From: Candidatus Nealsonbacteria bacterium
GTDB taxonomy: Bacteria > Patescibacteriota > Minisyncoccia > Minisyncoccales > CAZKCU01
NCBI GenBank assembly: GCA_047456305.1
Contig: CP179888.1
Coordinates: 1,690 to 65,689 of the forward strand
Direction: 5' to 3'
Length of the DNA stretch: 64,000 nucleotides
The notes below the pieces were generated by a model. It made no database searches and was not told the DNA's origin. It saw only the letters and a list, made by a program, of their open reading frames with translations. This document shows, piece by piece, positions 34,753 to 53,017 of this stretch (its first letter is position 1; each line of letters starts with the position of its first letter). The position numbers and the translations under genes were made by a program.

Positions 34753-34779
34753 TACTTCCCGGAAATTTCATCTCTTATA

Positions 34780-35264: not shown

Positions 35265-35272
35265 TTTTTACA

Positions 35273-37508: not shown

Positions 37509-37538
37509 TAATAATACCCGACCAAGTGGTCGGGTGTC
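37509..37538 (-). promoter_or_regulatory. promoter TTGACA-18-TATTAT whose spacer is an 18-bp palindromic operator, 6 nt from the ATG
   Basis: Read on the minus strand: TTGACA (37538-37533), CCCGACCActTGGTCGGG (37532-37515, perfect 8-bp arms), TATTAT (37514-37509), 6 nt, then ATG at 37502. Confidence 0.55.
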
Positions 37539-37605
37539 AACAGAACTTTATCCACAGTCTTCTTATCCGAAATGTCGCACAAGATGCGTTATAAGGCTTT
37601 GAAAA

Positions 37606-37637
37606 TAAAAATCGCCAAGAAGGCGGTTTTTTTGTAA
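37606..37637 (+). promoter_or_regulatory. hairpin/-10 box (P-box) in inverted orientation
   Basis: The plus strand reads AAAAATCGCCAAGAAGGCGGTTTTTTTGTAAGTT. All other copies have this sense on the minus strand. Confidence 0.35.
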
Positions 37638-37676
37638 GTTCCGAGGGACGGACGATGTTGAAACCTATTTGATAAA

Positions 37677-37719
37677 TTAAAACAAAATGCCTACAGACGG
37701 ATAATCTATCTGTAGGCAT
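37677..37719 (-). terminator. intrinsic terminator (usable from both strands)
   Basis: Perfect 11-bp stem ATGCCTACAGA/TCTGTAGGCAT (37687-37719). A T-rich tract follows on the minus strand. Confidence 0.6.
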
Positions 37720-37748
37720 TGCACGATGACTGCCCTCCTTAATATTCT

Positions 37749-37964
37749 TTATTTCGGTACAAATTCTACATCGTAGTTAACTAAGGAAAATAACTGTGTT
37801 GGCTCATTCTCAGTGGTGGGCGGGGCTATTTCTACAGCACCGCCCTCAAAAGCAAGCCCTATATACCCTTTTCCATTCCTGAGCTCTAAAACTTTTCTCC
37901 TGCCAAATATCCCCCTTTTTGTAACCGTAACCCTATAGACAGTAATAGCGTTATGTAATAACAT
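37749..37964 (-). CDS. hypothetical 71-aa protein
   Basis: Strong SD (AGGAGGGATAGA before the ATG) and a terminator directly downstream. Confidence 0.5.
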   Translation of the reverse strand: MLLHNAITVYRVTVTKRGIFGRRKVLELRNGKGYIGLAFEGGAVEIAPPTTENEPTQLFSLVNYDVEFVPK

Positions 37965-38010
37965 TCTATCCCTCCTTTTTTTGTGATTTTATATTATCTT
38001 ATCACCTACA

Positions 38011-38039
38011 ATAAAAAAAATCAAGCCCTAATGGCTTGA
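38011..38039 (-). terminator. intrinsic terminator closing the non-coding region 38041-38429
   Basis: Stem TCAAGCC/GGCTTGA (38021-38039). Eight T follow on the minus strand. Confidence 0.55.
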
Positions 38040-38040
38040 A

Positions 38041-38429
38041 ATTGCGAGCTTCGCGGGTAGAATTCGAACTAATACAAATTATGCGACATTGACTCCTCGT
38101 CCATAGATTATCCGTCTTAAGTCCTCAAACGCTGGTGTTGTGACGTTTATGTCGCACTATGCTCCTCATTCATAGATTGTGAAACAAGATAAGCTTTTGA
38201 CTCCTCTCTGATGCGAAGGACGTCATACGTCGGTGTTGTGGACACAAAGGGCGACATAAGTCCTCATCCGTTAATTATGCGACTCTTTTCGCTTGATTGG
38301 TTCGAATCCTAGCCCCTGGCATCCTCGGTCTGGAAATGAGGTTTTAAGGGTAATTTAGGCGGTTCTGGGGGTGTCTCACCGCCGCGTCTCGGTCGAGGTG
38401 TTTTTGAATAAAAGGAATAAATGCATGCC
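38041..38429. repeat. non-coding element, copy 2 (core 38308-38408), with internal ~65-110 nt sub-repeats
   Basis: No ORF. The core is paralogous to 30645-30747. The internal units GACTCCTC..CATAGATT / ..GGTGTTGTG..GCGACAT recur two to three times. Confidence 0.5.
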
Positions 38430-38708
38430 TTATTCGCACCCCCACCCATCTCCATCTCTGTCTAAATCAAAAACATCTGGACCAATAACACGAACACGCC
38501 CTGTATAATATGGGCCGTTACCAGATCCACCAGCGCAATCATAATCACTAGCATTTGGATTTAAACAGCCAGAATAGCTTGGGTGGCATTTTTGTTCTGG
38601 AAGAGTAACAGATTCCGATGATTGATTTGACTCGCTCAAGTTAGATATTAATCAAATCAAAAAGCCTATAAACATAAGGGTTAAAATTACCTTATTTATG
38701 TTTGTCAT
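38430..38708 (-). pseudogene. Excalibur calcium-binding-domain secreted protein interrupted by an in-frame TGA (pseudogene or recoded)
   Basis: C-terminus DCAGGSGNGPYY...DLDRDGDGWGCE is the Excalibur motif. ATG at 38708 gives MTNINKVILTLMFIGFLI, then TGA at 38654-38652, then the same frame continues LISNLSESNQ... Confidence 0.6.
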
Positions 38709-38723
38709 CTTTTCTCTTTTTAT

Positions 38724-38945
38724 TTATATTTTATGACACTCTTCATTACAATGTTTACATCCATCTATCTTCCATTCAGGAAAGCGTTTCTTGGCCTCCG
38801 CCATAGCATCTTCACAGTTAGAAAAATCACCAAGTCTAATTCTATTCTCTTGAAGAGGGGCTTCGGGACAATTATCATCTTTATGAATTTCGTGCTCACC
38901 ATGCTCTGGATAGGATTGAGGATTTTTATTTATATAATAAGACAT
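38724..38945 (-). CDS. small Cys/His-rich hypothetical protein
   Basis: 73-aa ORF with CPEAP...C....C.HCNEECH. Confidence 0.45.
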   Translation of the reverse strand: MSYYINKNPQSYPEHGEHEIHKDDNCPEAPLQENRIRLGDFSNCEDAMAEAKKRFPEWKIDGCKHCNEECHKI

Positions 38946-39108
38946 TTTATTAATTTTTTAATTGACAATTTCGACCTTTTTACTAATCCATGTTATCTGG
39001 ACAAACGAATTAGTAATCCAAAAATTGGCTTAAATAGCACTCTCAGGTCTGCCTCGATACTGCTCTGACTCGTGCTGCGGGTAATGAACGATGTTAGAAC
39101 CTGTTTGG

Positions 39109-39531
39109 TTAAATAAGTCCGAGCTTTTTCATCTCTTGAATAACTTCTAATCCTCCTGGACGAAGTTTGTAATCTTTCATCTCCTCTAATCTAACCCACT
39201 TAAAATCATCTGCATCATCTCCTGTTTCAACTTCTTTTCCGTTAGTTTCGCATTTAAATAACAGTATCGTAACGAATGGAAATGTCTTATAATTGTCAGA
39301 AGCTTTATTTTTAAAAACAGTTGAATAAATAAATTTTATTCCAGAGATATCTAAATTAACCTCTTCTTTTATTTCCCTTTTAAGAGCAGAGTCTATTGAT
39401 TCATTTTTCTCAACTATACCACCAGGAAAAAACCACAAACCTTCATGAAATTTACCCTTCTTTTTAACTAAAAGGTATTTATCTTTTTTTTGAATTATTC
39501 CGCTTACAACTATTAATGACTTGTTGTTCAT
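39109..39531 (-). CDS. NUDIX hydrolase
   Basis: Nudix box GGIVEKNESIDSALKREIKEEVNL. Confidence 0.8.
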   Translation of the reverse strand: MNNKSLIVVSGIIQKKDKYLLVKKKGKFHEGLWFFPGGIVEKNESIDSALKREIKEEVNLDISGIKFIYSTVFKNKASDNYKTFPFVTILLFKCETNGKEVETGDDADDFKWVRLEEMKDYKLRPGGLEVIQEMKKLGLI

Positions 39532-39540
39532 ATCTTTCTC

Positions 39541-39575
39541 ATTCTACCAAAAAACCACCTCTATTACCAAGTGAC
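39541..39575 (-). promoter_or_regulatory. P-box (hairpin + T-run + TGGTAGAAT), 9 nt before the NUDIX ATG
   Basis: The minus strand reads ...GGTAATAGAGGTGGTTTTTTGGTAGAAT. Confidence 0.5.
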
Positions 39576-39583
39576 AAATCACA

Positions 39584-39644
39584 GCTCCAGGAGCAGGATT
39601 CTAACTAATAAAAGTCTTAACTCCTCATTGATACGTAGTGCGAC
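39584..39644 (-). repeat. R1 repeat (tRNA 3'-end-like piece + GCATCAATGAGGAG block)
   Basis: The plus strand reads GCTCCAGGAGCAGGATTCTAACTAATAAAAGTCTTAACTCCTCATTGATACGTAGTGCGAC. Related copies lie at 38048, 51064 and 52963. Confidence 0.6.
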
Positions 39645-39772
39645 GGGAATAAAAAAGAGGTCTTTTTTTAAGGACGACCTCATGATATAGGCTTGGCTTC
39701 GAGGGTGGGACGTAATCAGAACTTGGTTTTGGGAGAGGTTTCTGGTGTTGGAACCTAGTTTCAAAAGGCACT

Positions 39773-40528
39773 CTAACGCTTTTGAGCAACGGTAATAAAA
39801 CTTTTACTGTCAAAATTGGGTGCGAATTTTAAAACTTTGAAATTGGCTTTGTTTAGGAATCTTTTTAATTCTTCTGGCGAAAATCCTCTTATGAGATCAT
39901 TAGTTTGATAGATTTTAGATTTTTTACCATCTACTTCAAAAGAGTAGAACCATCTAACAATAGTTGGCTTTTTAGAAATAATATGAAAACTGGAGGTTCT
40001 AGTTATTATGTGCCCTCTATTTTTTACTGCTTCTTCAGGTTTAAATATTTGTTTCTTTAACATTTTTTCAGCTTCAAAGTTGTCAAAGATTAGAACACTT
40101 TTATCTTTTAATACTTTATTAAAGCATTTTAAAGCTTTTTTTATATCTTTATCTTTAACCAAATGAGTAAAAGTCCTACCTATCAAGATTATCGCATCAA
40201 ATCTATCTTTTGTATTTATTTTTCTCATGTCACAGTGAATAACCTTAACATCGGGGTTTATAGTCTTAAAGATTTTATTTAAATCTTTAGAGTTATCTAA
40301 GGCAGTTATTTGAAACCCTTTCTTTTTTAAAATCTTTGTTAATCGCCCAGGTCCACTACCAACATGAAGCACACTTTTAACTTTGTAATTCCTTAAGTGT
40401 TTCTCAAACAACGAAGCTATAACGGGATAGTTCCAATGTTTCTCATAGAATAAATCATAAAGTTCAGCGAATTTGCCTTTATACAAATTTGGTAAAAGCT
40501 GATTTTCGATTCCTTGAAAGATTTTCAT
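39773..40528 (-). CDS. class I SAM-dependent methyltransferase
   Basis: Motif I VLHVGSGPGRLT. 251 aa. Confidence 0.75.
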   Translation of the reverse strand: MKIFQGIENQLLPNLYKGKFAELYDLFYEKHWNYPVIASLFEKHLRNYKVKSVLHVGSGPGRLTKILKKKGFQITALDNSKDLNKIFKTINPDVKVIHCDMRKINTKDRFDAIILIGRTFTHLVKDKDIKKALKCFNKVLKDKSVLIFDNFEAEKMLKKQIFKPEEAVKNRGHIITRTSSFHIISKKPTIVRWFYSFEVDGKKSKIYQTNDLIRGFSPEELKRFLNKANFKVLKFAPNFDSKSFITVAQKR

Positions 40529-40535
40529 ATTCTTA

Positions 40536-40565
40536 ATTCTACCAAAAAACCACTTTCTTGGCGAC
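40536..40565 (-). promoter_or_regulatory. P-box, 7 nt before the ATG at 40528
   Basis: The minus strand reads GTCGCCAAGAAAGTGGTTTTTTGGTAGAAT. Confidence 0.5.
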
Positions 40566-40653
40566 GCTCCTCATTGATGCGTAGTGCGACATAAAAAACC
40601 GCCCAAATAAATAGGGAGAATTGTCAGCTCCCCAGGTGGAACGATTTTAAAAT

Positions 40654-41328
40654 CTATTTCTTGGTCAATACAACGCTGTAATAAACGGGAATCTTTGCTG
40701 GTCCTTTTGAAAAAGCTCTAATTTTGAAATGTCTAATAATTTGATATCCAGTATTATTAAGAATTTTATTTATTTCTTTTTTACTCCTACGATAAAGTTT
40801 AAATTTCATAATATTGGGGGGATTTTTAATATAACCTTCGGCATTGTATTGAACTCTTAATTTTTGCAGTCGATGGTTAGGCAACAATAATTCATAAGTA
40901 AAAATAAAGTATCCATCTGCTTTTAATAATTGATATGTCTCTTTAATAATTCTTTTAATATTCTTTATAAATTCTAATACTCCTACTGCAATTATTATGT
41001 CAAAAGATTTATGTTTGAAATGGAGCCCGGTTAATCCATTGCTAATATTATATTTAAAAGTTTTTACTTCTGGGTATTTCTGTTTAACTATTTGTAGCAT
41101 TTTAGCAGAAATATCCACGGTATAGATTTTACAATTTTTATTTATAAAGATTTTTATACTTTGACCTGTGCCGACGCCTAAATCCAACACTGACGAATTA
41201 TTCTTAACTAATCTAAGTTGTGATAGCGTTTTGTTTACTTCATTCGGGGCAGACCACTTACCCTTTAGAGTGGCTTTGTTGTATTGATTAGCAAGTTTAT
41301 CATTATAAAGTTCAATAATTTTTGCCAT
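40654..41328 (-). CDS. class I SAM-dependent methyltransferase
   Basis: Motif I VLDLGVGTGQS. 224 aa. Confidence 0.75.
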   Translation of the reverse strand: MAKIIELYNDKLANQYNKATLKGKWSAPNEVNKTLSQLRLVKNNSSVLDLGVGTGQSIKIFINKNCKIYTVDISAKMLQIVKQKYPEVKTFKYNISNGLTGLHFKHKSFDIIIAVGVLEFIKNIKRIIKETYQLLKADGYFIFTYELLLPNHRLQKLRVQYNAEGYIKNPPNIMKFKLYRRSKKEINKILNNTGYQIIRHFKIRAFSKGPAKIPVYYSVVLTKK

Positions 41329-41335
41329 ATAATTT

Positions 41336-41367
41336 ATCCTACCAAAAAACCGCCCGATTGGCGATTC
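41336..41367 (-). promoter_or_regulatory. P-box, 7 nt before the ATG at 41328
   Basis: The minus strand reads GAATCGCCAATCGGGCGGTTTTTTGGTAGGAT. Confidence 0.5.
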
Positions 41368-41419
41368 TTGGTAGCTCCCCTAGTGGGATGACGTTAGAAC
41401 CTCTCTGGCAGGAAATTCC

Positions 41420-42079
41420 TTATCTTTTGGTGGCTTCGCAAAGATATGAAATAGGGGTTAACTCCGTTATCTTTACTTTTAAATCAACGGTGTTGAACAA
41501 TTTTTTAAGTTGTAGTTTTGTAAATTGTTCAGAAATTAAACCTTCAGCAGTAACAACTGTTCCATCTCTACCTACTTTTTTAATTTTTACCTTTGTCTTT
41601 TTGTAATTTTCTATTCTAGTTAGTAATGCTTTTTCTGAATATACACTTACAATTATTTTTCCTCTTGGTTTAGCTACCCTTTTCATTTCTTTCAATATTT
41701 TAAGTTTGTCTCTTCCAAAATTGCCAAAAGTATTGCCCATACAAATAACATAATCAAAAGTATTATTTTCGAAATGCATATTCCGAGTATCTTCCAAGAA
41801 TACATTAATATTTCTAAATTTTAGGAGGTTTTTCCTCGCTTCTTTCACTGCCTCTCGGTTGTAGTCAATTCCGCTAATATCTTTAGCAATACCTGCGAGT
41901 AATTTTATGTCTTTACCAAACCCACAACCCACATCTAAAACTCGGCAATTCTTTTTAATGTTTCCTCGAAGCCAGATTCCTTCTTTCCTAATCCAATCTT
42001 TGTATATTGGTGAAGGATTTTTGATGGTCTGTTTCCACCACTTGTGGAAAGAATACTCGGATTGTTTTATATTTTTCAT
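41420..42079 (-). CDS. class I SAM-dependent methyltransferase
   Basis: Motif I VLDVGCGFGKD. 219 aa. Confidence 0.75.
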   Translation of the reverse strand: MKNIKQSEYSFHKWWKQTIKNPSPIYKDWIRKEGIWLRGNIKKNCRVLDVGCGFGKDIKLLAGIAKDISGIDYNREAVKEARKNLLKFRNINVFLEDTRNMHFENNTFDYVICMGNTFGNFGRDKLKILKEMKRVAKPRGKIIVSVYSEKALLTRIENYKKTKVKIKKVGRDGTVVTAEGLISEQFTKLQLKKLFNTVDLKVKITELTPISYLCEATKR

Positions 42080-42154
42080 TTATAAAAATAAAAAAATTTA
42101 TTTTAATATACTCTCTTTTGACTTAAATTTCGGATTTTTTCTATACATTCTTTT

Positions 42155-42188
42155 ATCCTACCAAAAAACCGCCTTCTTGGCGATTTTT
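42155..42188 (-). promoter_or_regulatory. P-box, about 75 nt upstream of the ATG at 42079
   Basis: The minus strand reads AAAAATCGCCAAGAAGGCGGTTTTTTGGTAGGAT. Preceded by S hairpin CTCGGT/ACCGAG at 42196-42214. Confidence 0.45.
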
Positions 42189-42389
42189 GATGCGTCTCGG
42201 TCACCCGAACCGAGCACTAGCCTGCTCCCCAGTTCAAAGCTTAAACGAACTTTAGAGGACTTTGGGTATATGGCGATGGTGAAGGAGAAGCTGAACGAAA
42301 TCAAGATTTCCTGCCGCAATTACGGGATACCCCTGTTTCATTCACCCTCCCCCAATTGAACGCCATTCGAACCTGTTTGATGGAATTAA

Positions 42390-43556
42390 CTACTCCGAAA
42401 CCTTAAAAGTAGAAAGTATTTTATCATACAGCGCTCTATTATCTTGGTTGTCCACATCTAACATACTAATGCTAAAGACTTTATCATTCTTTATAAAGTA
42501 AATATCTTCTTGAGACCAAGCCATGGGTGATTTAGGAGTATAAACTTTTACAGCTGGTATGCCGTCTATTTCTGTATTTATCTCATCGGGAATATCTTCG
42601 TAGTATGAGTAATTTTCCTTAACCCAACTAACAAGGTCTGTTCCCGCAGGCGGACTATAATAATCAACATAAACAGAATGGAAAACAACAAATGAAGCAC
42701 CGGTTAAATCAGATTTTGTGCCAGTAAAAGTTCCCAAAGATACCTCGTCTGGATTTTCAGCATTGAAGTAGCACAAACATTCTCTGGGTCTTTCTTCTGG
42801 TGGACTTTGCTTGCAATAACCTGGCAAAGGACCAAAAAGACAATTTTCAGGATATTTCAAAGAATATCCATATTTTTCATTCGTATAATTATTCCAATCA
42901 GCGGTTAGGTCTATGGTTATCTCTAACTTCCCGCATTTCACTGTTACATCTTTGATATCAGGTTCTTGCGGAGTAGACCCTCCAGAAACAGTACAAACAA
43001 TCTGGTCTTTTTTATATCCCACTAATCCAGTAAAGAGGCCGTCAGCTATATTGTAAAGATCTAGCTCAAAACCTCTATCTATCAAAAAAGACTCAACGCT
43101 GTCATACTGCTCGCTTGACATGCGTGTAGCTTTAAATCCTTTTCCTTCTATATCCACTTCTTCTACTTTTGGATCTACTTTAACCACCCATTTCAATTCA
43201 ACTGGTTGTATCTCTGAAAAATCTATCCCGGTTTCTTGTTTGAGGTCTTCTAAAAGAACTGAAACTTCATCTAAAGATACGCATTCGCTTCCATTAAAGC
43301 ATTTATCAGGTCCGCAATCGCAAATCTTTACCTGATGACTATTATCTGGTGAACAACCACAAGGACCAATAAGGCACAAGTTAGGAAAATCACCAGTTGC
43401 TTTACAACACAATGATATTGATACTTGCCCTCCAGAGTCTACGCAAGTTTGTTCTTTTCCGCTTAACTCTTCGGGTGTTATCGTTGACTGATAAATCCAG
43501 TAACCTAATCCTACAATAACGATTATAATAATGATTGCAATTATTATTTTTGACAT
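42390..43556 (-). CDS. membrane-anchored/secreted protein with Cys-rich N-terminal region
   Basis: N-terminal TM segment IIIAIIIIIVIVGLGYWIY, then a cluster of about 12 Cys. 388 aa. Confidence 0.5.
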   Translation of the reverse strand: MSKIIIAIIIIIVIVGLGYWIYQSTITPEELSGKEQTCVDSGGQVSISLCCKATGDFPNLCLIGPCGCSPDNSHQVKICDCGPDKCFNGSECVSLDEVSVLLEDLKQETGIDFSEIQPVELKWVVKVDPKVEEVDIEGKGFKATRMSSEQYDSVESFLIDRGFELDLYNIADGLFTGLVGYKKDQIVCTVSGGSTPQEPDIKDVTVKCGKLEITIDLTADWNNYTNEKYGYSLKYPENCLFGPLPGYCKQSPPEERPRECLCYFNAENPDEVSLGTFTGTKSDLTGASFVVFHSVYVDYYSPPAGTDLVSWVKENYSYYEDIPDEINTEIDGIPAVKVYTPKSPMAWSQEDIYFIKNDKVFSISMLDVDNQDNRALYDKILSTFKVSE

Positions 43557-43599
43557 ATTGTTTTTTAATTAAAGTTATTTACTACGACCTTTCATTTCC

Positions 43600-43634
43600 A
43601 TTCTACCAAAAAACTGCCTGATTGGCGATTTTTT
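43600..43634 (-). promoter_or_regulatory. P-box, 43 nt upstream of the ATG at 43556
   Basis: The minus strand reads AAAAAATCGCCAATCAGGCAGTTTTTTGGTAGAAT. Confidence 0.45.
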
Positions 43635-43700
43635 GATGGCTCGCACCGATACATTAAAAGCGTCCAGGTGCTGGCGAACGATGTAAGAAGCTGGGTTAAA

Positions 43701-43744
43701 TGAAAAAGGCGAGGTATTAGCGAATCTTACGATTCTTCCTCGCC
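43701..43744 (-). terminator. intrinsic terminator
   Basis: Stem GGCGAGG/CCTCGCC (43708-43744). TTTTTCATTT follows on the minus strand. Confidence 0.5.
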
Positions 43745-43804
43745 TGCTGCATAAACAGGAGGGTAGAAGTTGCTGTGGACTTCATATTTAGTTAGAATGA
43801 AATA

Positions 43805-43954
43805 TCAGTGTGAGCGTTTGAGTATCTTCTTTATAGTCTTCTTTATCCAGTTAAAGGGATCAGGAGTTGACAATGCCTGTTTCTCCCAGCAATCAGGATA
43901 GGGGCATTCCCTTGGTGGATAGCCATGTGAACAAAGGAATTCTGGACTCGCCAT
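43805..43954 (-). CDS. 49-aa Cys-containing protein (below the ORF-track cutoff)
   Basis: Hand translation gives MASPEFLCSHGYPPRECPYPDCWEKQALSTPDPFNWIKKTIKKILKRSH. SD AAGGAGGATGATTAA precedes the ATG. TTGACT-17-TAATAT lies upstream near 43990-44030. Confidence 0.35.
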   Translation of the reverse strand: MASPEFLCSHGYPPRECPYPDCWEKQALSTPDPFNWIKKTIKKILKRSH

Positions 43955-44180
43955 TTAATCATCCTCCTTCTTATTTTGATATTAAGAACTGTAAATTGAT
44001 ATTATCATCTTTTATAAAAAAAGTCAACTTAATTAAAACCGTCCAAAAGGGCGGTCAGAAAGCGACAATGCTCCCCCTATTGGACGCATTTAGAACTCTG
44101 GATTTGATAGGAATTAGAGAAGAGTTAGAAATTTGGATGCCCAATTTAACAAAGGGCGGACAGTGTTAGAACCCGGTTTT

Positions 44181-44211
44181 ATAAAAAATCAAGCCCGAGA
44201 ATGGGCTTGAT
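44181..44211 (-). terminator. intrinsic terminator of csp copy 1
   Basis: Stem ATCAAGCCC/GGGCTTGAT. A T-run follows on the minus strand. Confidence 0.65.
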
Positions 44212-44242
44212 TTTCATCTATCTGATTTTGCTGAGTTAATTC

Positions 44243-44440
44243 TTAAATGCGAGTTACGTTTGTTGCGTTGGGTCCTTTTTCAGAATCAGCCTTCTCAAAA
44301 GACACCCTGTCGCCTACTTTTAACTCTTCGTAATTTACGCCCTTAAGTTCATTTTTGTGAAAAAACAAATCTTTTTCTTCACCATCAACGGTAATAAATC
44401 CAAATCCTTTATCTGTAAGGTTTTTAATTGTTCCTTCCAT
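44243..44440 (-). CDS. cspA: cold-shock protein (CspA family), copy 1
   Basis: GTIKNLTDKGFGFITVDGEEKDLFFH carries the RNP1/RNP2-type motifs. 65 aa. Confidence 0.9.
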   Translation of the reverse strand: MEGTIKNLTDKGFGFITVDGEEKDLFFHKNELKGVNYEELKVGDRVSFEKADSEKGPNATNVTRI

Positions 44441-44930
44441 GATTATAGTTAAATATAGATTAATTTAATTAATGTTTTAAGGTTTTATCCTAAAGTTTAG
44501 TTCCCTGAATAAACTCGACTAAATTTTTATTAGACAACTATCTTATTCGAAGAAGATTCCTTCTTCTCAACCTTCGCTCGGCTTCGCCTCGCTCGGGTAT
44601 GTAAATAAGATTAACATTTAAAAAACAATTCGTCAACCTAAAAAATTAAGGCTTGAAAAATCGTGGCTTGGCGATTTTTGGGTGTCTGTTTTAATAAATA
44701 ATTAAACCTATTTAGTAGGATTTTCTTAATTTTTTCTTATCGTTCACTTTTTCTTTGGTTGTTTTCTCCTTCGTTTTTTTAACTTCCTATTAAGTCTTTT
44801 TTGGTTATGCCATCCTATACCCATGTTTTTTTTACTTTTTACTTTTATTAGTTATATTATGACCTTTTATTTATTTTATCAAAAAACCGCTTTCTTGGTG
44901 AGGCGGCATTCCACAAATAGAGAATATTGA

Positions 44931-45173
44931 TTACTCTTTGTATGGAAGAACTTTTAGTGCTTTTTTAACATCATTCTCAGGAACTAAAAGAAAAACTCCT
45001 TTAGGAGGAGGAACGGCTGAAGAACCAAAAATACCAGATGCTTCACTTTTTATCAAAACAGAAATACCATGTTTTTTAAGTATTGTAGCCACCATTTCTG
45101 CCTCGGGGCGTGAAGCATAGTTTGCTATCTTCTTAAATTTAATGGGTGAGTTCTTTTTATTTTCCTTTTTCAC
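44931..45173 (-). CDS. DUF2007-like small protein (putative signal-transducing protein fold)
   Basis: RPEAEMVATILKKHGISVLIKSE... pattern. GTG start 6 nt after a TAGAAT box. Confidence 0.45.
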   Translation of the reverse strand: MKKENKKNSPIKFKKIANYASRPEAEMVATILKKHGISVLIKSEASGIFGSSAVPPPKGVFLLVPENDVKKALKVLPYKE

Positions 45174-45179
45174 ATTCTA

Positions 45180-45214
45180 ATTCTACCAAAAAACCACCTT
45201 CTTGGCGATTTTTT
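45180..45214 (-). promoter_or_regulatory. P-box, 6 nt before the GTG at 45173
   Basis: The minus strand reads AAAAAATCGCCAAGAAGGTGGTTTTTTGGTAGAAT TAGAAT GTG. Confidence 0.5.
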
Positions 45215-45220
45215 ATATTT

Positions 45221-46546: not shown

Positions 46547-46814
46547 AGAATTTATTTTTTCTTGTTTTTGATTCGCCGGTGTTCAAGACGGGTGGCTAAA
46601 CCCCAAAACCGGCGAATTTGCCTGGTAATTTTAACTGATTTTTTCTTAAATAAAGTCCGGGGAGGCCGTTTTTTGGGCAGGTCTTTTATCTTATATTTCT
46701 TCATTATTTTAATTTAACTTATTTTTGGCTTTTTATCAATCTTGAAAATTTTTGATAGAAAATAAAAAAACAACCTACCAAAAAGACGGGCTGCTTAAAA
46801 TTTTGTTATAAATT

Positions 46815-46937
46815 TTATTTATGCTTTCTTTTGCTTGCCTTAGCTTTAAGCATAAGCCGCTTTATTTCCAATCGTTTCTTGGTTTTATGAGAATGTGATT
46901 TCTTATGCTTTCCGACTCCTGTACTTCTTTTTGCCAT
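46815..46937 (-). CDS. 40-aa highly basic peptide (below the ORF-track cutoff)
   Basis: Hand translation gives MAKRSTGVGKHKKSHSHKTKKRLEIKRLMLKAKASKRKHK. TAAAAT lies 6 nt before the ATG. Composition is ribosomal-protein-like but no family was recognised. Confidence 0.3.
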   Translation of the reverse strand: MAKRSTGVGKHKKSHSHKTKKRLEIKRLMLKAKASKRKHK

Positions 46938-47076
46938 ATAAGTATTTTATTAATATGAATTAATTTGACTCCTTATTTAAGACTATATAATATAAGGCAG
47001 AAACAATCAATCTTAATTAAAAAAAGCCTCCTTGGCGATTTTTATTGGCTTCCCCTGTTGTGATTTTTTATAATTC

Positions 47077-47295
47077 TTAAATTTTTTGGGTTTTCTTAAT
47101 ATTTTCTTTTTCTTTAGAACTTAAAGAAGTAAGCCATAAAATAAACGGCCTGCGAAGTTTATCTAAAGACCAATCATCGTCTTTAAAAAGCGAAGTTTTC
47201 TCTATCCTAAAACGTGAAAGCAAAGACGTTGTCGCCTGCAGGTTTAAGGGAGATAGTTTATTATGTTCTGATAAAAATCGCTGTTTTTTAGTCAT
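47077..47295 (-). CDS. hypothetical protein
   Basis: ATG at 47295 (MTKKQRFLSEHNK...) lies inside the track ORF. Confidence 0.3.
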   Translation of the reverse strand: MTKKQRFLSEHNKLSPLNLQATTSLLSRFRIEKTSLFKDDDWSLDKLRRPFILWLTSLSSKEKENIKKTQKI

Positions 47296-47414
47296 TTGCC
47301 AAGCTTTTGCGCGCAAAAGCGAAGTGAAATAAAAGCAACTCTACTCTCAACTTCTACTTTATATAATACGCTTATTTTTTTAAAAAAGCAATCCTTATAA
47401 ATTATTTTGATCCG

Positions 47415-47455
47415 CATTAAAATCAAATCCCGCTTCACGCGGGATTTGATTTTCA
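47415..47455 (-). terminator. intrinsic terminator of csp copy 2
   Basis: Stem AATCAAATCCCGC/GCGGGATTTGATT. Confidence 0.65.
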
Positions 47456-47481
47456 TTTATTTGATCTTACTGAATTAATTC

Positions 47482-47679
47482 TTAAAGGCGAGTTACGTTT
47501 GTTGCGTTGGGTCCTTTTTCAGAATCGGTCTTTTCAAAAGACACTCTATCACCTACTTTTAACTCTTCGTAACTTACATCCTTAAGTTCATTCTTGTGAA
47601 AAAATAAATCTTTCTCTTCGCCATCAACGGTAATAAATCCGAATCCTTTTTCTGTAAGAGTTTTAATTGTTCCTTCCAT
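47482..47679 (-). CDS. cspA: cold-shock protein (CspA family), copy 2
   Basis: Differs from copy 1 at only a few residues. The flanking 5' leader is also duplicated. Confidence 0.9.
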   Translation of the reverse strand: MEGTIKTLTEKGFGFITVDGEEKDLFFHKNELKDVSYEELKVGDRVSFEKTDSEKGPNATNVTRL

Positions 47680-47845
47680 ATTATAGTTAAATATGAATTA
47701 ACTTAATTAATGTTTTAAGGTTTTATCCTAAAGTTTAGTTCTCCGAATAAACTCGACTAAATTTTTATTAGACAACTATCTTATGTAAATAAGATTAACA
47801 TTTAAAAGTTGACCAGTCAACCTAGAGAAATTAAGGTTTGAGATT

Positions 47846-47907
47846 CTGCTCCGGCGGCAGGACTCGAACCCGTCTCGGTCGCCCAGAACCGAGCACTAGC
47901 CTGCTCC
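47846..47907 (-). repeat. tRNA 3'-end-like fragment fused to an S hairpin module
   Basis: The minus strand reads CCGGAGCAGGCTAGTGCTCGGTTCTGGGCGACCGAGACGGGTTCGAGTCCTGCCGCCGGAGCAG. No D or anticodon arm is present. Confidence 0.55.
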
Positions 47908-48021
47908 GGAAAGAAAATATCATCAAACCTTTTCAATAACCCTGCCGAATTTAATCCACCAATCCAAGAAAAAGAATTTACGCTGACTCCTCCCCTACCC
48001 TGATTCCGTTGCTTAGGGTTC

Positions 48022-48771
48022 TTATTCTCCTTTAATTTTTTTTACAAGTCCCATCAGCTCGACCGGAAACAAAATTGTGGTATTGGGTTCTTTGGCAGCT
48101 TCCGCTAATGTCTCAAGGTACCTTAAGGTAATAGGGTCAGCGCTTAAAATTTCTCCAGCCTCTTTCAGTTTTTGAGCAGCCAGATATTCACCATCAGCTA
48201 AAATAATTTTAGCCCTTTTCATTCTTTCTGCTTCAGCCTGCTTGGCAATAGCTCTTTGCATTGCTTCGGGAATTTCCACATGCTTTACTTCCACGGCTGT
48301 CACTTTTATCCCCCAAGGATCAGTGGCTCGATCAATAATGTCGTGGAGTTTTCGATTAATCTTTTCTCGTTCAGCTAAAAGCTCATCTAAGGTTGAAGCC
48401 CCAACCACTCCCCGCAAAGAGGTTTGAGAATTCTGGGAAGTAGCCATCATATAATCTTCTACTTCGATGATTGCTTTTCCCGGATCAGAAATCTTGAAGT
48501 ACAAAACAGCATCAACTTTTATGGGAATGTTGTCTTTAGTAATCACTTCTTGGGCCGGGACATCGAGAGTTAAAATTCTTAGATCTATTTTAATCATCTT
48601 GTCGATAATGGGGATTATTAGGAATAACCCGGGACCTCTAATTCCAGCAAATCTTCCCAACCTAAAAATCACTCCTCTTTCATATTCTCGAGTAATCTTT
48701 ACTGCCTGAGGCAGAATTATCAAGGCGATGATAATTACCCCTACCCAACTGAAAAGTAAATTTGCTAACAT
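48022..48771 (-). CDS. SPFH/band-7 (stomatin-like) membrane protein
   Basis: N-terminal TM segment, then an SPFH core (EYERGVIFRLGR...TKDN..I.VDAV..) and a coiled-coil AEAERMKRAKI. Confidence 0.85.
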   Translation of the reverse strand: MLANLLFSWVGVIIIALIILPQAVKITREYERGVIFRLGRFAGIRGPGLFLIIPIIDKMIKIDLRILTLDVPAQEVITKDNIPIKVDAVLYFKISDPGKAIIEVEDYMMATSQNSQTSLRGVVGASTLDELLAEREKINRKLHDIIDRATDPWGIKVTAVEVKHVEIPEAMQRAIAKQAEAERMKRAKIILADGEYLAAQKLKEAGEILSADPITLRYLETLAEAAKEPNTTILFPVELMGLVKKIKGE

Positions 48772-48798
48772 AATAATTTAGAATTTATGATTTCGAAT

Positions 48799-50085
48799 TT
48801 ATATTTTTTTCACTATGAGGGTGTTTCCCTCAACTTTTACTATCTCGACCTTTAACTTTTTGGGAATTATTTTTTTATCAAAACTTTCAGCTGACCAAAT
48901 TTCTCCTTTAATCTTAACCTGCCCCAAAGGATTAAGGATTTTAACAACTTCAGCTTGAAGTCCAATCAGGGCCTCGGGTCCAGTTTTTGGTTTGACTCTA
49001 AGTGTTTTGGCTACTCCTCTACCTATAATAACAAAAAAGATACAAATAGATAGGACCGCTCCAATAACTACCATGGTCATTGCCTCAAAGAAACCAGGAG
49101 TTAAAAATGGTTCGGCCTCAAAGGTGAAAATTCCTAAAACAATAGCGATTGCTCCCCCAATGCCAAAAATACCAAAACCTGGTTCAACAAAAATCTCCAT
49201 CATTAAAAGAAAAAGGCCGAGTAAAATTAAACCAATTCCTAAAAAACTAAAAGTAATTACCCCCATTCCCCAAAGGCCGATTAAAAGGGCTATTATTCCA
49301 ATAATACCACTTATTTCAAATTCCCCTGCCCGAATGGCCATAATAATTGCCAGCCCGCCAATAGTCAAAAGAAAAGATACCAAATAAGGATGAGAAAGAA
49401 AATCAAAAAATTTTTCAGAAAAACTAGGCTTAATTTCTCTTATTTTAGGCCCTGAAATATTAAGTTTTAAAAAAAGTTCATCTAAGGTTTTTGCTGTCTC
49501 ATCTGCAATTCCAATTTCTTTTGCTTCTTTGCCGGTCAGAGTAAGATTTTCCCGAACAAATTTTTCAGCAACTTCGGCATTTCTCTGATGGATTTCAGCT
49601 AAACTCTTTATCCAGGAAGCTGTCCCCTCAATCATCTTTTGGTCAACTTCTATTGTTTCCCCGATTATCTGTCGCGGTTGAGCTGCTCCAATTGAAGCTT
49701 CGGGATGCAAGACAGCAAAATCTGCTGCCAGCAAAATAAAGGTGCCGGCTGAATAAGCCCAACCCCCCTCTTTGTGGACAAAAACAATAGTTTTTGTTTT
49801 AGTTTCCAGCATCGAATCAACTATATCCTTAGTTGATTTTAAAAGGCCACCGGGGGTGTCTAATTTGATTACTAAAAATTCTGCTTTTTCTTCCTCGGCC
49901 AGTTTAATTACTCTTTTTAAATATTGATGGGTCCCAGCCCTAATTTCACCCTCAATTTCAGCAAGATAGGTTAACTGGCCCTCTGGCTGACTGTTAACTT
50001 CTTGTAACGGTAACAAGAGATTAAAGAATAATAATCCTAAAATAATCAAAAAAGCTAATTTTTTTAGAAATTTAATTTGGCTCAT
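48799..50085 (-). CDS. NfeD-like membrane-bound ClpP-class serine protease
   Basis: Periplasmic ClpP-like domain (IKLDTPGG...AYSAGTFI), a multi-TM block and a C-terminal NfeD OB domain. Classic pairing with the SPFH gene. Confidence 0.8.
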   Translation of the reverse strand: MSQIKFLKKLAFLIILGLLFFNLLLPLQEVNSQPEGQLTYLAEIEGEIRAGTHQYLKRVIKLAEEEKAEFLVIKLDTPGGLLKSTKDIVDSMLETKTKTIVFVHKEGGWAYSAGTFILLAADFAVLHPEASIGAAQPRQIIGETIEVDQKMIEGTASWIKSLAEIHQRNAEVAEKFVRENLTLTGKEAKEIGIADETAKTLDELFLKLNISGPKIREIKPSFSEKFFDFLSHPYLVSFLLTIGGLAIIMAIRAGEFEISGIIGIIALLIGLWGMGVITFSFLGIGLILLGLFLLMMEIFVEPGFGIFGIGGAIAIVLGIFTFEAEPFLTPGFFEAMTMVVIGAVLSICIFFVIIGRGVAKTLRVKPKTGPEALIGLQAEVVKILNPLGQVKIKGEIWSAESFDKKIIPKKLKVEIVKVEGNTLIVKKI

Positions 50086-50422
50086 TTTTATTATTTGGCT
50101 AAAAATAAAAACCCGCTTTGATCATAGCAGGTTTTTTGTTAAATAAAAATTGCCCAGCAAATGAGTTTCCTCAATTTGGCTGGGCGGCTCGGTCCCCCGA
50201 ACACCTCACTAGCCTGCTCCGGGGGACGGACGACATTCGAACCTACTGGAACACCACAAAGGAGTATTTTGAGATACCAGGCGACTTCTCCGTAATCTAA
50301 CCTTTCCCTACTAGTATGTGAGAATATCTTACAGGATAGTTATTTTGCTTACTTTGGTCTTTTTTGGTAAAATAAACAAAGAAAGGTCGCTGATATTCTA
50401 CATCTATTAAAAATAACAAAAC

Positions 50423-50989
50423 ATGATTTTTTCTCTTATTTCGCGTCTCGTTAACGGTGTAAGAGGAGGGGTTAAAGCCGGTTTGGAAGGGGTTAGTGAT
50501 ATTGGTAGTGCTATTGTTAACATTGTAAGAAATACAGCTGTCACAACATTGAAAGAAACAGGAGAATTTGTTGGCAAAGGTATCGAAGCTTCTGCCTCGA
50601 TAGTAAAAGGTGCAATTTCTGGGGTGACTGATGTTGGCGCATCGGTGGTTGGAACAATTAGTGGTATTATAAAAGGAACTGTCCGTGGTGTTATAGAAGG
50701 TGGAGGAAAACAAGAAGAGGCTGTCCGTGGAGCTATATCTCAAGCAGTATATAGTGCAAAAGAGTTAGGAATAAATATTGGTGAGGCAGCAGTCGAGGCA
50801 GTAAAAGGTTCAATTGAGGCTATCAAAGAAGTAGGTGGTGATACACTTAAAGCAACGAAGGAAGCTGTATCAGCTGCCATAGAGACCGCTGAAGATATTG
50901 GTGGTGAAACAGCAGAGGCAGTCAAAGGTTCGCTTGAGAGTAGCATCGAAGGAGCTAAAGAAATTATTGAAGCAACAAAGAAAGAATAA
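50423..50989 (+). CDS. Ala/Gly/Val/Glu-rich repetitive helical protein
   Basis: 188 aa with recurring G.[IV].A...[IV]KG.I.G / EAVKGSIEA units. The only + strand gene in a minus-strand region. The overlapping minus ORFs look like shadows. Confidence 0.5.
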   Translation: MIFSLISRLVNGVRGGVKAGLEGVSDIGSAIVNIVRNTAVTTLKETGEFVGKGIEASASIVKGAISGVTDVGASVVGTISGIIKGTVRGVIEGGGKQEEAVRGAISQAVYSAKELGINIGEAAVEAVKGSIEAIKEVGGDTLKATKEAVSAAIETAEDIGGETAEAVKGSLESSIEGAKEIIEATKKE

Positions 50990-51063
50990 TTATCATTAGG
51001 CTTTCTTCTCTCTTTTAAAATAGACACTCAATTCGAATTGGGTGTTTATTTATTTCGCTACTC

Positions 51064-51126
51064 GGCTCCGGCGGTAGGACTCGAACCAATAATGGTCTTA
51101 ACTCCTCATTGATGCGTAGTACGACG
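51064..51126 (-). repeat. R1 repeat (tRNA 3'-end-like piece + GCATCAATGAGGAG block)
   Basis: The minus strand reads CGTCGTACTACGCATCAATGAGGAGTTAAGACCATTATTGGTTCGAGTCCTACCGCCGGAGCC. Confidence 0.6.
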
Positions 51127-51176
51127 TAAAAACCGCCAAAAAAAGGCGGAATTTTCGGTCCGAGGGACGGACGATA

Positions 51177-51644
51177 TTAGAACCTATTTTCTTTATTAAT
51201 ATAGTTCTTTATAGCTTTCTCACTGGGGAAAAACATAGGTTGGGGTAAGACATACGGGTCAAACCATCTCCATTCAGTTATTTCATCAGGTTCCATAACT
51301 TTAGGCTCTCCTTCAAATTCTTCTGCAAGGAAAACTATTGTTACAAAATGAGCATCTTCAACAACATCATTAGTAACACTAACTATTTTTATTCTATCTT
51401 TGTTTATTTTAATTCCTGTTTCCTCATAAACTTCTCTGTAAGCACATCCTGGAATACCTTCTTTAAAATCGAGTTTGCCTCCAGGTAAAGTCCAAGTTCC
51501 TTCTCCATGAAGTAAGCTATCTGCTTTTTCAGGATCTTCATGTCTTTTGCCAAGTAAAAGTTTGTTATCCTTAAGAAGTATTACTCCAATCCCTACCCTT
51601 GGTTTTTTATTAAAACCTTCCATGATATTATTTTGTTTCATCAA
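51177..51644 (-). CDS. NUDIX hydrolase (MutT-like)
   Basis: Nudix box GGKLDFKEGIPGCAYREVYEETGI. Confidence 0.8.
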   Translation of the reverse strand: MMKQNNIMEGFNKKPRVGIGVILLKDNKLLLGKRHEDPEKADSLLHGEGTWTLPGGKLDFKEGIPGCAYREVYEETGIKINKDRIKIVSVTNDVVEDAHFVTIVFLAEEFEGEPKVMEPDEITEWRWFDPYVLPQPMFFPSEKAIKNYINKENRF

Positions 51645-51933
51645 GGATTATTTTTTCTTTAAAACCGCCTCTTTTCTGATTTTTTTCTTCTCTTAAAAAC
51701 TCTAATTCTTCTTTTTTGATTCCTTTAAACTGACAAATTGCATAGATTACTTCCAAAATATCAGCAAGTTCTTCTTTATTGCTTTCTCCTAAGAATTCTT
51801 TAACCTCTTCTTCGAGTTTTTCTTTTAGCTTCAACCAGTATTCTTTATCATCAGCAATATGAGTTATTGGAATGTCTCTTTTTTGCTTGATAATCTCTGG
51901 AATTTTGTCTCTTACAAGTTTATTGTATTTCAT
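51628..51933 (-). CDS. MazG-like nucleoside triphosphate pyrophosphohydrolase
   Basis: MKYNKLVRDKIPEII...EELADILEVIYAI pattern. The second ATG (51933) is preferred because the first overlaps the TAGAAT box. Confidence 0.7.
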   Translation of the reverse strand: MKYNKLVRDKIPEIIKQKRDIPITHIADDKEYWLKLKEKLEEEVKEFLGESNKEELADILEVIYAICQFKGIKKEELEFLREEKNQKRGGFKEKIILDETK

Positions 51934-51940
51934 ATATCTC

Positions 51941-51974
51941 ATTCTACCAAAAAACCGCCTTCTTGGCGATTTTT
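51941..51974 (-). promoter_or_regulatory. P-box, 7 nt before the ATG at 51933
   Basis: The minus strand reads AAAAATCGCCAAGAAGGCGGTTTTTTGGTAGAAT. S hairpin CTTTCG/CGAAAG lies just upstream (51975-52014). Confidence 0.5.
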
Positions 51975-52190
51975 GATGCCTTTCGGTCGCTCGAAAGACT
52001 CACAAGCCTGCTCCGTATACTTAAAATAGTTCGAACATTTTTCGCCGCCTGCGGCGGCGAGGAACCCCCAAAAAAAATCGGAGCGGCTTCGCCACGATAT
52101 TTAACAATCTCAGGTTTCTTTGGCGGCAAATTCTTTTTTAAAAAAAGAAAACCAGTTGTTAGGTACAACTGGTAAAACCTTAAATTTGTT

Positions 52191-52962: not shown

Positions 52963-53017
52963 GGCTCCGGCGGTAGGACTCGAACTAATAAAAATCTTGA
53001 CTCCTCACTGATGCGCT
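52963..53017 (-). repeat. R1 repeat copy
   Basis: The plus strand reads GGCTCCGGCGGTAGGACTCGAACTAATAAAAATCTTGACTCCTCACTGATGCGC. Confidence 0.6.

Follow-up and report, generated by a model that had tools for sequence, protein, structure and literature searches.

The P-box is a 34-nt intergenic repeat that stands in front of a series of small genes in the 64-kb stretch of Candidatus Nealsonbacteria DNA analysed here (called the window, at its full length). It combines a small GC-rich hairpin, a run of T residues, TGG and a hexamer of the TAGAAT type. We propose that the P-box is an intrinsic terminator for the gene upstream which overlaps an extended -10 promoter for the gene downstream, that the mRNAs begun there are leaderless in most cases, and that box and gene together make up a portable unit. 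Judged from sequence evidence, we give this reading as a whole a probability of roughly 0.75. Terminator, extended -10 promoter and leaderless mRNAs had already been suggested in a sequence-only reading of the same DNA, and all sequence-level tests that were run agree with them. Near-identical copies occur in many genomes of Patescibacteria (candidate phyla radiation, CPR), from which the box is to be regarded as a lineage-wide gene-expression module of this group and not as a peculiarity of the window. The P-box would represent a compact, dual-purpose intergenic signal, chiefly of lineages of the Parcubacteria, Paceibacteria and Nealsonbacteria type.

The P-box in the window

The core sequence TTTTTTGGTAGRAT is present seven times without a mismatch, at 39541, 40536, 41336, 42155, 43600, 45180 and 51941, precisely where the sequence-only reading had placed it. 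All seven belong to the minus strand and fall within 39.5-52 kb, and none is expected by chance. When up to two mismatches are allowed, the whole window contains 15 matches, against 5.0 +/- 1.9 in shuffled sequences. The full 34-mer with up to three mismatches is found only at 42155, 43600, 45180 and 51941, again with a chance expectation of none. TGGTAGRAT is common to all seven copies. They are all intergenic, orientated in the same way as their genes, and confined to 12.4 kb of small co-oriented genes, with no copy elsewhere in the 64 kb.

A hairpin had been ascribed to every copy, which is correct for five of the seven. The copies at 41336, 42155, 43600, 45180 and 51941 contain AAAAAUCGCC-N5-GGCGGUUUUUU within a stem of about 10 bp, fold with -5.8 to -11 kcal/mol (z -3.4 to -4.2) and show T6 as the immediate continuation of the stem. 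At 39541 and 40536 the T-run and the hexamer are preserved, but the weak hairpins (-4.6 and -2.9 kcal/mol) are no better than those of shuffled sequences. The partly compensating stem pairs GGTGG/CCACC, GGCAG/CTGCC and GGGCGG/CCGCCC, described earlier as well, do not exist in the window. There GGTGG faces TCGCC, which gives a G·U wobble, and GGCAG faces TCGCC too, which gives a C·A mismatch; true compensatory pairs are found only in copies from other genomes.

The exact consensus is represented by the copy at 51941..51974, with hairpin and U-run at 51949-51974, TGG at 51947-51949 and TAGAAT at 51941-51946 (-11 kcal/mol, z -4.1). Behind it lies an open reading frame (ORF) of 101 aa (51628-51933; this and the following genes are, like their boxes, on the minus strand), whose ATG at 51933 is 7 nt past the hexamer; it has no match in Pfam or NCBIfam, and its former label "MazG-like" could not be upheld. 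The box at 45180..45213, with the wobble-forming arm GGTGG (-9.1 kcal/mol, z -4.1), precedes a DUF2007 gene (44931-45173) that begins with GTG at 45173, 6 nt past the hexamer. The box at 43600..43633 has the arm GGCAG with its single C·A mismatch (-5.8 kcal/mol, z -4.2) and belongs to a leadered class treated below: its 388-aa gene (42390-43556) starts with ATG at 43556 after a 43-nt leader, and AAAGGTCG begins 8 nt past the hexamer. At 42155..42188 the hexamer is TAGGAT, and a third methyltransferase gene, of class I (41420-42079), follows. TAGGAT is also present at 41336..41369, together with the loop AATCG and a complete hairpin (-11 kcal/mol), ahead of a 224-aa methyltransferase (40654-41328; ATG at 41328, 7 nt past the hexamer). 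The degenerate box at 40536..40569, with a further hairpin and T-run just upstream (about 40590-40615), leads a 251-aa methyltransferase (39773-40528; ATG at 40528, 7 nt), and the divergent box at 39541..39574 leads a NUDIX gene (39109-39531; ATG at 39531, 9 nt). The distances of 6-9 nt for the NUDIX, 251-aa, 224-aa, DUF2007 and 101-aa genes, as well as the absence of a Shine-Dalgarno sequence before all five, had been pointed out previously and are borne out.

Two of these genes deserve a remark as to their starts. Behind box 42155, an ATG at 42148, 6 nt past the hexamer, opens a mini-ORF of 16 codons (42098-42148, minus strand; MYRKNPKFKSKESILK), which may be a leaderless upstream ORF; the start of the methyltransferase lies 69 nt 3' of the mini-ORF start. 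For the 101-aa gene, the longest-ORF rule chooses an ATG within the -10 hexamer itself (51933-51942, TAGAATGAG), while translation more likely starts at ATG 51933. The starts of box-led genes may be systematically misplaced by gene callers.

Partial copies had been indicated near 44875 and 47016, and both are present on the minus strand. The first (44873..44912) consists of a GCCGCC...AGCGG hairpin, T6 and GATAAAAT, followed by AAAGGTCA and a long AT-rich leader toward a cold-shock gene (44243-44440). In the second (47011..47044), direct reading gives the hairpin AAAAATCGCCAAGGAGGC and T7 with a poor hexamer, TTAAGA. The inverted copy at 37606..37640 (plus strand) possesses the hairpin (-11 kcal/mol on the plus strand, -7.7 on the minus strand) and no -10 element, so it is an inverted copy of one half of the box only. 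Its position between a gene-end motif (37650-37667, see below) and the promoter of a LexA-methyltransferase gene suggests a terminator-only version.

Hairpin and predicted termination

According to our proposal, AAAAAUCGCC-loop-GGCGGUUUUUU would serve as an intrinsic terminator for the co-oriented upstream gene; U·G and A-U pairs bring its four G-C pairs up to a stem of about 10 bp, and the U-run follows. Sites composed of at least five T, then G[GA], then TA[GAT][AG]AT were collected from 870 kb of loci of CPR genomes. A GC-rich hairpin abuts the T-run in 143 of the 213 sites, as opposed to 3.3% at other T-runs and 1.9% at hexamers without a T-run. The complementary arms fall into several classes (CGCC/GGCG, GCCT/AGGC, GCCA/TGGC, CTGC/GCAG, GCTT/GAGC), and the loops are mostly of 5 nt (97 copies) or 10 nt (41 copies).

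The imperfect positions of the stems are informative, because G·U pairs far outnumber A·C pairs there (132 vs 17). This asymmetry points to pairing in sense-strand RNA and not to a symmetric DNA operator. In agreement with a terminator, 110 of 117 hairpin-bearing copies (94%) have an upstream gene in their own orientation, compared with a baseline of 78% for neighbouring genes, and in several metagenome-assembled genomes (MAGs) the box is located 5-50 nt after a tRNA gene. A GC stem with a U-run, pairing at the RNA level and a place after a co-oriented unit, all characteristic of intrinsic terminators, were each found.

Predicted promoter and leaderless starts

The last T of the T-run, the following G and the hexamer would form an extended -10 promoter, TGnTAGAAT. 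When copies are retrieved by their hairpin only, the bases that follow are, in falling frequency, GGTAGAAT, GGTAGGAT, GATAGAAT, GGTATAAT, GGTAAAAT and GATAAAAT. The variation of the hexamer is that of TGn plus TAnnAT, more narrowly TA[GAT][AG]AT, with T1, A2 and T6 fixed and position 3 free, which is the signature of an extended -10 element and not of a tRNA D-arm. A promoter consensus scan lists three of the window copies as TCGCCA-17-TAGAAT with TG; TCGCCA, at the -35 position with a 17-nt spacer, matches TTGACA at four of six positions, and the A-tract of the box would fall near -40. Because the hairpin occupies the place of the -35 element, and other hairpin classes put a different sequence there, the promoter probably works without a -35. 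An alternative sigma factor with a GAAT-containing -10 (sigma-H-like) was also considered and dropped, as an AGGA-type -35 is absent and the loops vary.

The distance from hexamer to ORF start was determined for 143 sites in other genomes. Of these sites, 23 have a distance of 6 nt, 11 of 7 nt, and 7 each of 8 and 9 nt, so that 48 of 143 copies fit leaderless spacing, with a mode of 6 nt; ATG is used in 56 of 60 such starts. A gap of 6 nt brings the A of ATG to the canonical +1. Transcription is therefore predicted to begin about 7 nt past the hexamer, at the A of ATG in most copies or 1-3 nt before it, and an mRNA beginning at or just before its ATG would be leaderless and translated without a Shine-Dalgarno sequence.

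This geometry is general in the genomes concerned and not peculiar to the box. Among ORFs without a P-box, TANNNT ends 6 nt before ATG in 59 of 710, against a background of about 25, and a Shine-Dalgarno-like motif precedes only 16-19% of genes in the window and the CPR loci (11 of 68 in the window). Many housekeeping genes have a TATAAT-like hexamer 6-8 nt ahead of the ATG. Five further window genes have such a layout: grpE (61551), the LexA-methyltransferase gene (37502), the genes at 26358 and 61778, and the gene of a 40-aa basic peptide. The LexA-methyltransferase promoter reads TTGACA-18-TATTAT-8 nt-ATG and that of the 40-aa peptide TAAAAT-6 nt-ATG. Both had been named as further examples by the sequence-only reading, together with a "LAGLIDADG gene", a label that does not hold: no LAGLIDADG domain occurs in any window ORF tested, and the domain search yielded a GIY-YIG domain at 32649-33038. 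Leaderless expression thus looks genome-wide, the box being probably its most stereotyped form, and the figures suggest that translation without leader and Shine-Dalgarno sequence is common in this group.

A leadered minority can be recognized besides. About 11% of sites (about 2% expected) have A(A/G)GGT(C/T) within 30 nt past the hexamer. The motif mostly begins 6-9 nt past the hexamer, usually has the form AAAGGTCG (about 24 sites in CPR loci), and is followed by about 25-40 nt of AT-rich sequence, lacking a Shine-Dalgarno sequence, before the ATG. The members of this class in the window are the boxes at 43600 and 44873 and an eighth promoter related to the seven boxes which lacks a strong hairpin, TTTTTTGGTAAAAT at 50360..50373 on the plus strand, in front of a 188-aa gene (50423-50989, plus strand, ATG at 50423). 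AAAGGTCG lies at 43584-43591, 44861-44868 and, on the plus strand, 50382-50389, where it starts 9 nt past the hexamer. Such transcripts would begin at or near AAAGGUCG and carry an AT-rich leader devoid of a Shine-Dalgarno sequence; placed where the mRNA 5' end is predicted, or close to it, AAAGGTCG appears to mark a second conserved class of transcript starts. The same sequence is also seen upstream of the window genes at 12641 and 17839.

Occurrence in other genomes

Reference genomes, one per species, were scanned with the pattern RGYRGTTTTTTGGTAGRAT. It matches at least 118 loci, most of them from Patescibacteria MAGs, where chance would give about 35 matches by our own rough estimate. Among the matches listed, those from Bacteroides, Lachnospiraceae and similar taxa have no hairpin and resemble this chance background. 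The remaining labels among the matches listed are Nealsonbacteria, Parcubacteria, Paceibacterota, Minisyncoccales, Portnoybacteria, "Patescibacteria group" and "Saccharibacteria", and most of these Patescibacteria-type copies are complete boxes with AAAAATCGCCAA. Viral contigs (2.9 million) gave no match with a long pattern and seven with a short one. Several window genes and intergenic pieces show 80-88% DNA identity to box-bearing MAGs.

The genes led by the box in other genomes are diverse and include HAD hydrolases, ABC transporters, MurJ, RsgA, DHODH and PCMT, which speaks for a general-purpose signal. Beyond the small accessory genes of the sequence-only reading, the box elsewhere also precedes genes of housekeeping functions.

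Possible portability of box and gene

As terminator, promoter and start codon would be contained within about 45 bp, a gene with its box would constitute a self-contained, insulated expression unit. Such a unit could be moved or reshuffled by recombination between boxes, which is the weakest step of our proposal. The evidence comes from a related genome. In contig JBARPC010000018 (loci L066 and L114), homologues of the 224-aa methyltransferase (82% identity) and the 388-aa gene (79%) likewise follow a P-box; they stand in the opposite order to that of the window, with other box-led genes between them. At the DNA level, the 388-aa gene with its box is 88% identical to its L066 counterpart, and the L066 homologue of the 224-aa methyltransferase follows its box with a 6-nt gap. 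DNA homology between the window and this contig is bounded by the T-run or the hairpin at one end and by the stop codon at the other. In addition, hairpin arms and loops are more similar within a MAG (46.5%) than between MAGs (37.0%), a difference reached in none of 1000 permutations. Shuffling between boxes would fit the reordered genes, and the portable unit of the sequence-only reading thereby gains modest support, consisting of two shared box-led genes reordered in one related genome and of homology that ends at the box.

Genomic setting and neighbouring repeats

The window joins a phage-like and a chromosomal part. Phage structural genes occupy 1-28 kb (terminase 3207-4649, portal 5540-7648, capsid 10726-12081, tape measure 19320-20813); their products have only remote relatives among known phages, and phages of CPR bacteria are poorly known. 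A XerD-like tyrosine recombinase (28049-29005) adjoins this block, outside the island. From 53 kb onward the genes are of housekeeping type (uppS, pyrG, rplI, an S41 protease, tRNA-Lys and dnaJ-dnaK-grpE, to 61.5 kb), and the tRNA-Lys-dnaJ-dnaK stretch shows 67% identity and synteny with a CPR MAG contig. Housekeeping genes and synteny together identify a bacterial chromosome beside a probable prophage. A phage origin of the island was rejected, since megablast gave no match in phage records, the structural proteins are distant, and the right half is housekeeping and syntenic with a CPR MAG. The island that carries the P-boxes is accordingly chromosomal, part of a Patescibacteria genome with a probable prophage beside it, and not a phage accessory region.

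The P-box shares the island with a gene-end motif, AAA-CAGGTTCTAACATCGTCC-N7-GGAGC, which is conserved even more strongly. In the 870 kb of CPR loci it has 124 copies, 100 of which follow a gene on the same strand at a median of 32 nt past the gene end. The seven window copies, all on the minus strand and only in the 37.6-52 kb island, are at 37650-37667, 39086-39103, 41386-41403, 43676-43693, 44158-44175, 50228-50245 and 51169-51186. The motif is followed, at variable distance, by a P-box or by another promoter type, and motif/box units form tandem arrays in other MAGs (L110, L104, L070, L090). We considered and rejected three interpretations of it. Identity with integron attC sites fails, as none of 125 motifs has a full inverted partner and one of 125 has GTTRGAAY within 150 nt; the only recombinase is of the XerC/D type and scores below integron-integrase cut-offs. 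A phage att site was rejected because the 23 viral matches are about the number expected by chance (our own rough estimate), several of them fall in apparent coding sequence, and at most two show the true context. A coding relation was rejected as well, no in-frame link of the motif's TAA to an upstream stop codon being found.

Directly upstream of P-box 42155 lies a conserved 37-nt spacer, GGAGCAGGCTAGTGCTCGGTTCGGGTGACCGAGACGC (42192..42228, minus strand), with further window copies at 51978-52014, 47871-47907 and 50184-50220; in other MAGs (L019, L051) it stands between a genuine tRNA-Gln gene and a P-box. The island also houses about ten fragments resembling tRNA 3' ends (GGTTCGAGTCCTACCGCCGGAGC; from the T-loop to GGAGC[AC], without a tRNA 5' half), among them those at 52961-52986, 51062-51087, 47845-47870, 39581-39606 and 38048-38079. 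An orphan fragment of this kind recurs in another MAG (L094), and neither ARAGORN nor Rfam calls any of them. ARAGORN found only tRNA-Lys in the window; Rfam at the gathering score found nothing besides tRNA-Lys, and in 37-54 kb nothing even at E<=1. A tRNA or known RNA family was ruled out on these grounds for the box and for the adjacent T-loop-like repeats. P-boxes, gene-end motifs and tRNA-3'-like fragments are all missing from the housekeeping and phage-like parts of the window.

Several other elements of the window may be mentioned. Next to a tRNA-3'-like fragment, a 300-nt non-coding stretch contains five GAGGAG/GAGGAC motifs about 30-60 nt apart (38098-38265, minus strand), which might be a structured or sponge-like RNA; CGCATCAATGAGGAG, related to pieces of it, recurs at 39621, 40567 and 51102. 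Two more repeat families precede small genes at 32412-34377 and 32580-35268: AATTTAGCCCGAAGTT with five copies, seen also downstream of a P-box in Parcubacteria DG_74_1 (L043), and CGAAGAATTAATTGAGAAATAAA with four copies that include a putative TTG start. A cassette of about 350 nt, consisting of a cold-shock gene and a long conserved 5' region, is duplicated at 44207-44558 and 47446-47796 (90-92% identical) and is 82-86% identical in three other MAGs (L016, L026, L079). Finally, a single ORF (36048-37502) has a LexA-like repressor as its N-terminal part, above the TIGR00498 cut-off, joined to a CcrM-type adenine methyltransferase. Its promoter (37511-37540) contains an 8-bp perfect palindrome, CCCGACCA/TGGTCGGG, with the ATG 8 nt past the hexamer, and in other MAGs a conserved promoter type reads TTGACAATAC-palindrome-GTATTGT and precedes a Shine-Dalgarno sequence.

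Alternative explanations

The P-box might be mainly a recombination site, either bordering mobile cassettes or acting jointly with the tRNA-3'-like and CAGGTTCTAACATCGTCC motifs in a site-specific system, and its properties as promoter and terminator would then be secondary. We consider this possible, although on balance doubtful; a role in recombination is in any case compatible with the reading we prefer. The crowding of seven boxes, seven gene-end motifs and about ten tRNA-3'-like fragments in a 12.4-kb island, the tandem arrays in the four MAGs named above, the reordered cassettes of JBARPC010000018 with homology ending at the box, the greater likeness of hairpins within a genome and the presence of a XerD-like recombinase gene at 28049-29005 all argue for it. 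However, the recombinase adjoins the phage-like block and not the island, and there is no integron-like architecture, an inverted partner being present for at most 1 of 125 gene-end motifs. Boxes also precede the housekeeping genes for MurJ, RsgA and DHODH and follow ordinary tRNA genes, and neither an excision product nor a presence/absence polymorphism was seen, the comparison covering one genome pair. The most far-reaching form of the idea, that many genes of Paceibacteria-type Patescibacteria are autonomous cassettes bounded by a CAGGTTCTAACATCGTCC-N7-GGAGC tRNA-3'-like end, a terminator hairpin and a leaderless extended -10 promoter, is put forward as speculation that we ourselves think rather improbable.

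The hairpin could instead be a DNA palindrome, that is, an operator for a dimeric repressor or activator which co-regulates the island genes, as the sequence-only reading had allowed. Conservation of the 5' half of the box (ATCGCCAA...GGCGG) beyond the needs of a terminator and its overlap with the -35 and spacer region, a frequent site of repressors, would suit an operator. This possibility is nevertheless quite unlikely. The excess of G·U over A·C disfavours it, being the pattern of RNA pairing; stems of several unrelated sequences and loops of either 5 or 10 nt occur at the same position; and the hairpin always abuts the T-run, is found alone as a terminator-type copy (37606) and after tRNA genes, and is connected with genes of unrelated functions.

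Very unlikely, in our opinion, is a selfish repeat of the type of repetitive extragenic palindromic (REP) sequences and their REP-associated tyrosine transposases (RAYT), or of miniature inverted-repeat transposable elements (MITEs), which would spread in intergenic DNA with an incidental likeness to promoters. The P-box is indeed short, palindromic, extragenic and multicopy, it contains GTAG, the tetranucleotide typical of REPs, and its copies are more alike within than between genomes. Yet its GTAG is placed 3' and not 5' of the palindrome, beyond T6, and has a variable G (TATAAT, TAAAAT). The box strictly follows its downstream gene in orientation and keeps a fixed distance of 6-9 nt from the ATG; neither terminal inverted repeats nor target duplications were observed, and no Y1 transposase turned up in the ORFs of the window that were tested.

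Attenuators and riboswitch expression platforms typically place a terminator-like hairpin some 20 nt ahead of the start codon, and the hairpin and U-run could accordingly be a regulated attenuator in a long 5' leader that comes from upstream, TAGAAT being no promoter at all. We judge the chances of this slim. No conserved aptamer or antiterminator precedes the box, in keeping with the empty Rfam search of 37-54 kb at E<=1, and what lies directly upstream is a gene end or a tRNA. The hexamer has -10-type conservation and a TG, the driven genes are unrelated in function, and a read-through transcript without a Shine-Dalgarno sequence would have no evident route to translation start.

Close to refuted is the notion that the 3' half GGCGGTTTTTTGGTAGAAT is a relic of the 5' part of a tRNA (acceptor and D-arm, cf. 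AATGGTAGAAC) akin to the tRNA 3' fragments of the island: TGGTAGAAT is a common D-loop/D-stem string, frequent in papers on tRNA fragments, it resembles AATGGTAGGAC and AATGGTAGAAC of the local tRNA-Gln and tRNA-Asn, and the island is rich in tRNA-3'-like pieces, but the box varies in the manner of a -10 element (GG to GA, TAGAAT to TATAAT or TAAAAT) without keeping G18/G19, the sequence after the hexamer bears no likeness to a tRNA, neither ARAGORN nor Rfam detects a tRNA at the box, and the fixed distance to ATG is left unexplained.

A number of observations weigh against the terminator-promoter reading which we prefer. Its terminator half has a GC stem of just 4 bp, and a simple terminator scan of the window does not list the boxes, probably because extension of the stem through the A-tract absorbs the T-run. 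At 40536 and 39541 a convincing hairpin is absent while the promoter half stays. Near-identity of the hairpin across many genomes exceeds what a terminator needs and is not accounted for by our proposal. GTG, the start codon of the DUF2007 gene, is unusual for a leaderless mRNA. The predicted termination in the U-run, the start site and leaderless translation are all deduced from geometry, and the suggested shuffling from a single genome pair. The cross-genome statistics are drawn from loci picked for containing the box, with the 3' arm fixed by the search pattern, and are biased to that extent. MAG labels are unreliable, too: "Saccharibacteria" in third-party annotation (TPA) assemblies is doubtful, and some contigs are filed as archaea or Proteobacteria.

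Relation to known systems

Promoter-early stem-loops (PeSLs) of T4-type phages are composite terminator/promoter repeats in hyperplastic regions which mediate modular shuffling (PMC2839356, PMC4122927). Their recombination, the formation of mini-circles, and promoter as well as terminator activity have been shown by experiment (PMC2839356, PMC4122927). In functional terms, PeSLs would be the closest known analogue of the P-box. Both are small, conserved terminator/promoter composites with many copies in one orientation before small non-essential genes, and both are clustered in a plastic region; PeSL copies flank units that vary in order or presence between related genomes, and for P-boxes one genome comparison may point in this direction. 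The differences are equally clear. The PeSL is a phage element in which the stem-loop adjoins a complete sigma-70 early promoter (-35/-10), and its genes have ordinary ribosome-binding sites. The P-box resides in a cellular Patescibacteria chromosome, its hairpin reaches across the -35 and spacer region of the predicted extended -10 promoter, and its start codon lies 6-9 nt past the hexamer, predicting leaderless mRNAs from what is so far sequence evidence. By this analogy the P-box is PeSL-like in its presumed working and no member of that phage family.

Promoters of leaderless genes in Actinobacteria, Deinococcus-Thermus and the middle and late genes of Thermus phage phiYS40 have TANNNT about 6-7 nt before AUG, no Shine-Dalgarno sequence, a strong preference for AUG and often no distinct -35. 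The spacing between -10 and AUG, the absence of Shine-Dalgarno and the AUG preference are shared with the P-box, and probably also the dispensable -35. Unlike it, those promoters are not known to be fused to a preceding terminator or to be part of a near-identical 34-nt repeat, and the P-box lineage is a low-GC Patescibacteria group.

A-tract (bidirectional) intrinsic terminators, and with them the overlapping terminator-promoter arrangements of compact genomes, are related to the other half of the box. They have in common with it a GC stem, a short loop, a U-run and an upstream A-tract able to pair with the U-run, and at 37606 the hairpin also stands alone, inverted, as a presumed terminator. 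The P-box differs by its fixed spacing to the -10 and a U-run that supplies the T of TG, by a stem sequence strongly conserved across genomes, and by a G·U bias that favours one strand.

The SAS, ESAS (start-associated and extended start-associated sequences) and stoperators of mycobacteriophages are likewise short conserved repeats, situated immediately upstream of many start codons in one genome. SAS/ESAS include the ribosome-binding site and stoperators are repressor-binding sites; in contrast to the P-box, none is known as a terminator-promoter fusion or as conserved across a bacterial lineage. Our survey, which covers the published literature incompletely, met with no account of the box or the gene-end motif, nor of leaderless expression in Patescibacteria, and a study of TM7x start sites (PMC12641261) does not mention the box.

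Significance

Patescibacteria make up a large share of bacterial diversity, and their rules of transcription start and stop and of translation start are nearly unknown. Genetic tools for these organisms in one published study borrow whole tuf or rpsJ flanks. A 34-nt consensus which apparently terminates, promotes and places a leaderless AUG would be a ready-made expression part, and knowledge of the P-box would sharpen the calling of gene starts in CPR MAGs. If the boxes also mediate cassette shuffling, they would help to explain how tiny genomes keep variable islands. Should genes of this group even prove to be autonomous cassettes, they would be excised, exchanged and reinserted between genomes via conserved borders, as a cellular counterpart of phage PeSL shuffling or as a new cassette system tied to tRNA-like sites, and the native start rules for transcription and translation would be set for a largely uncultured lineage.

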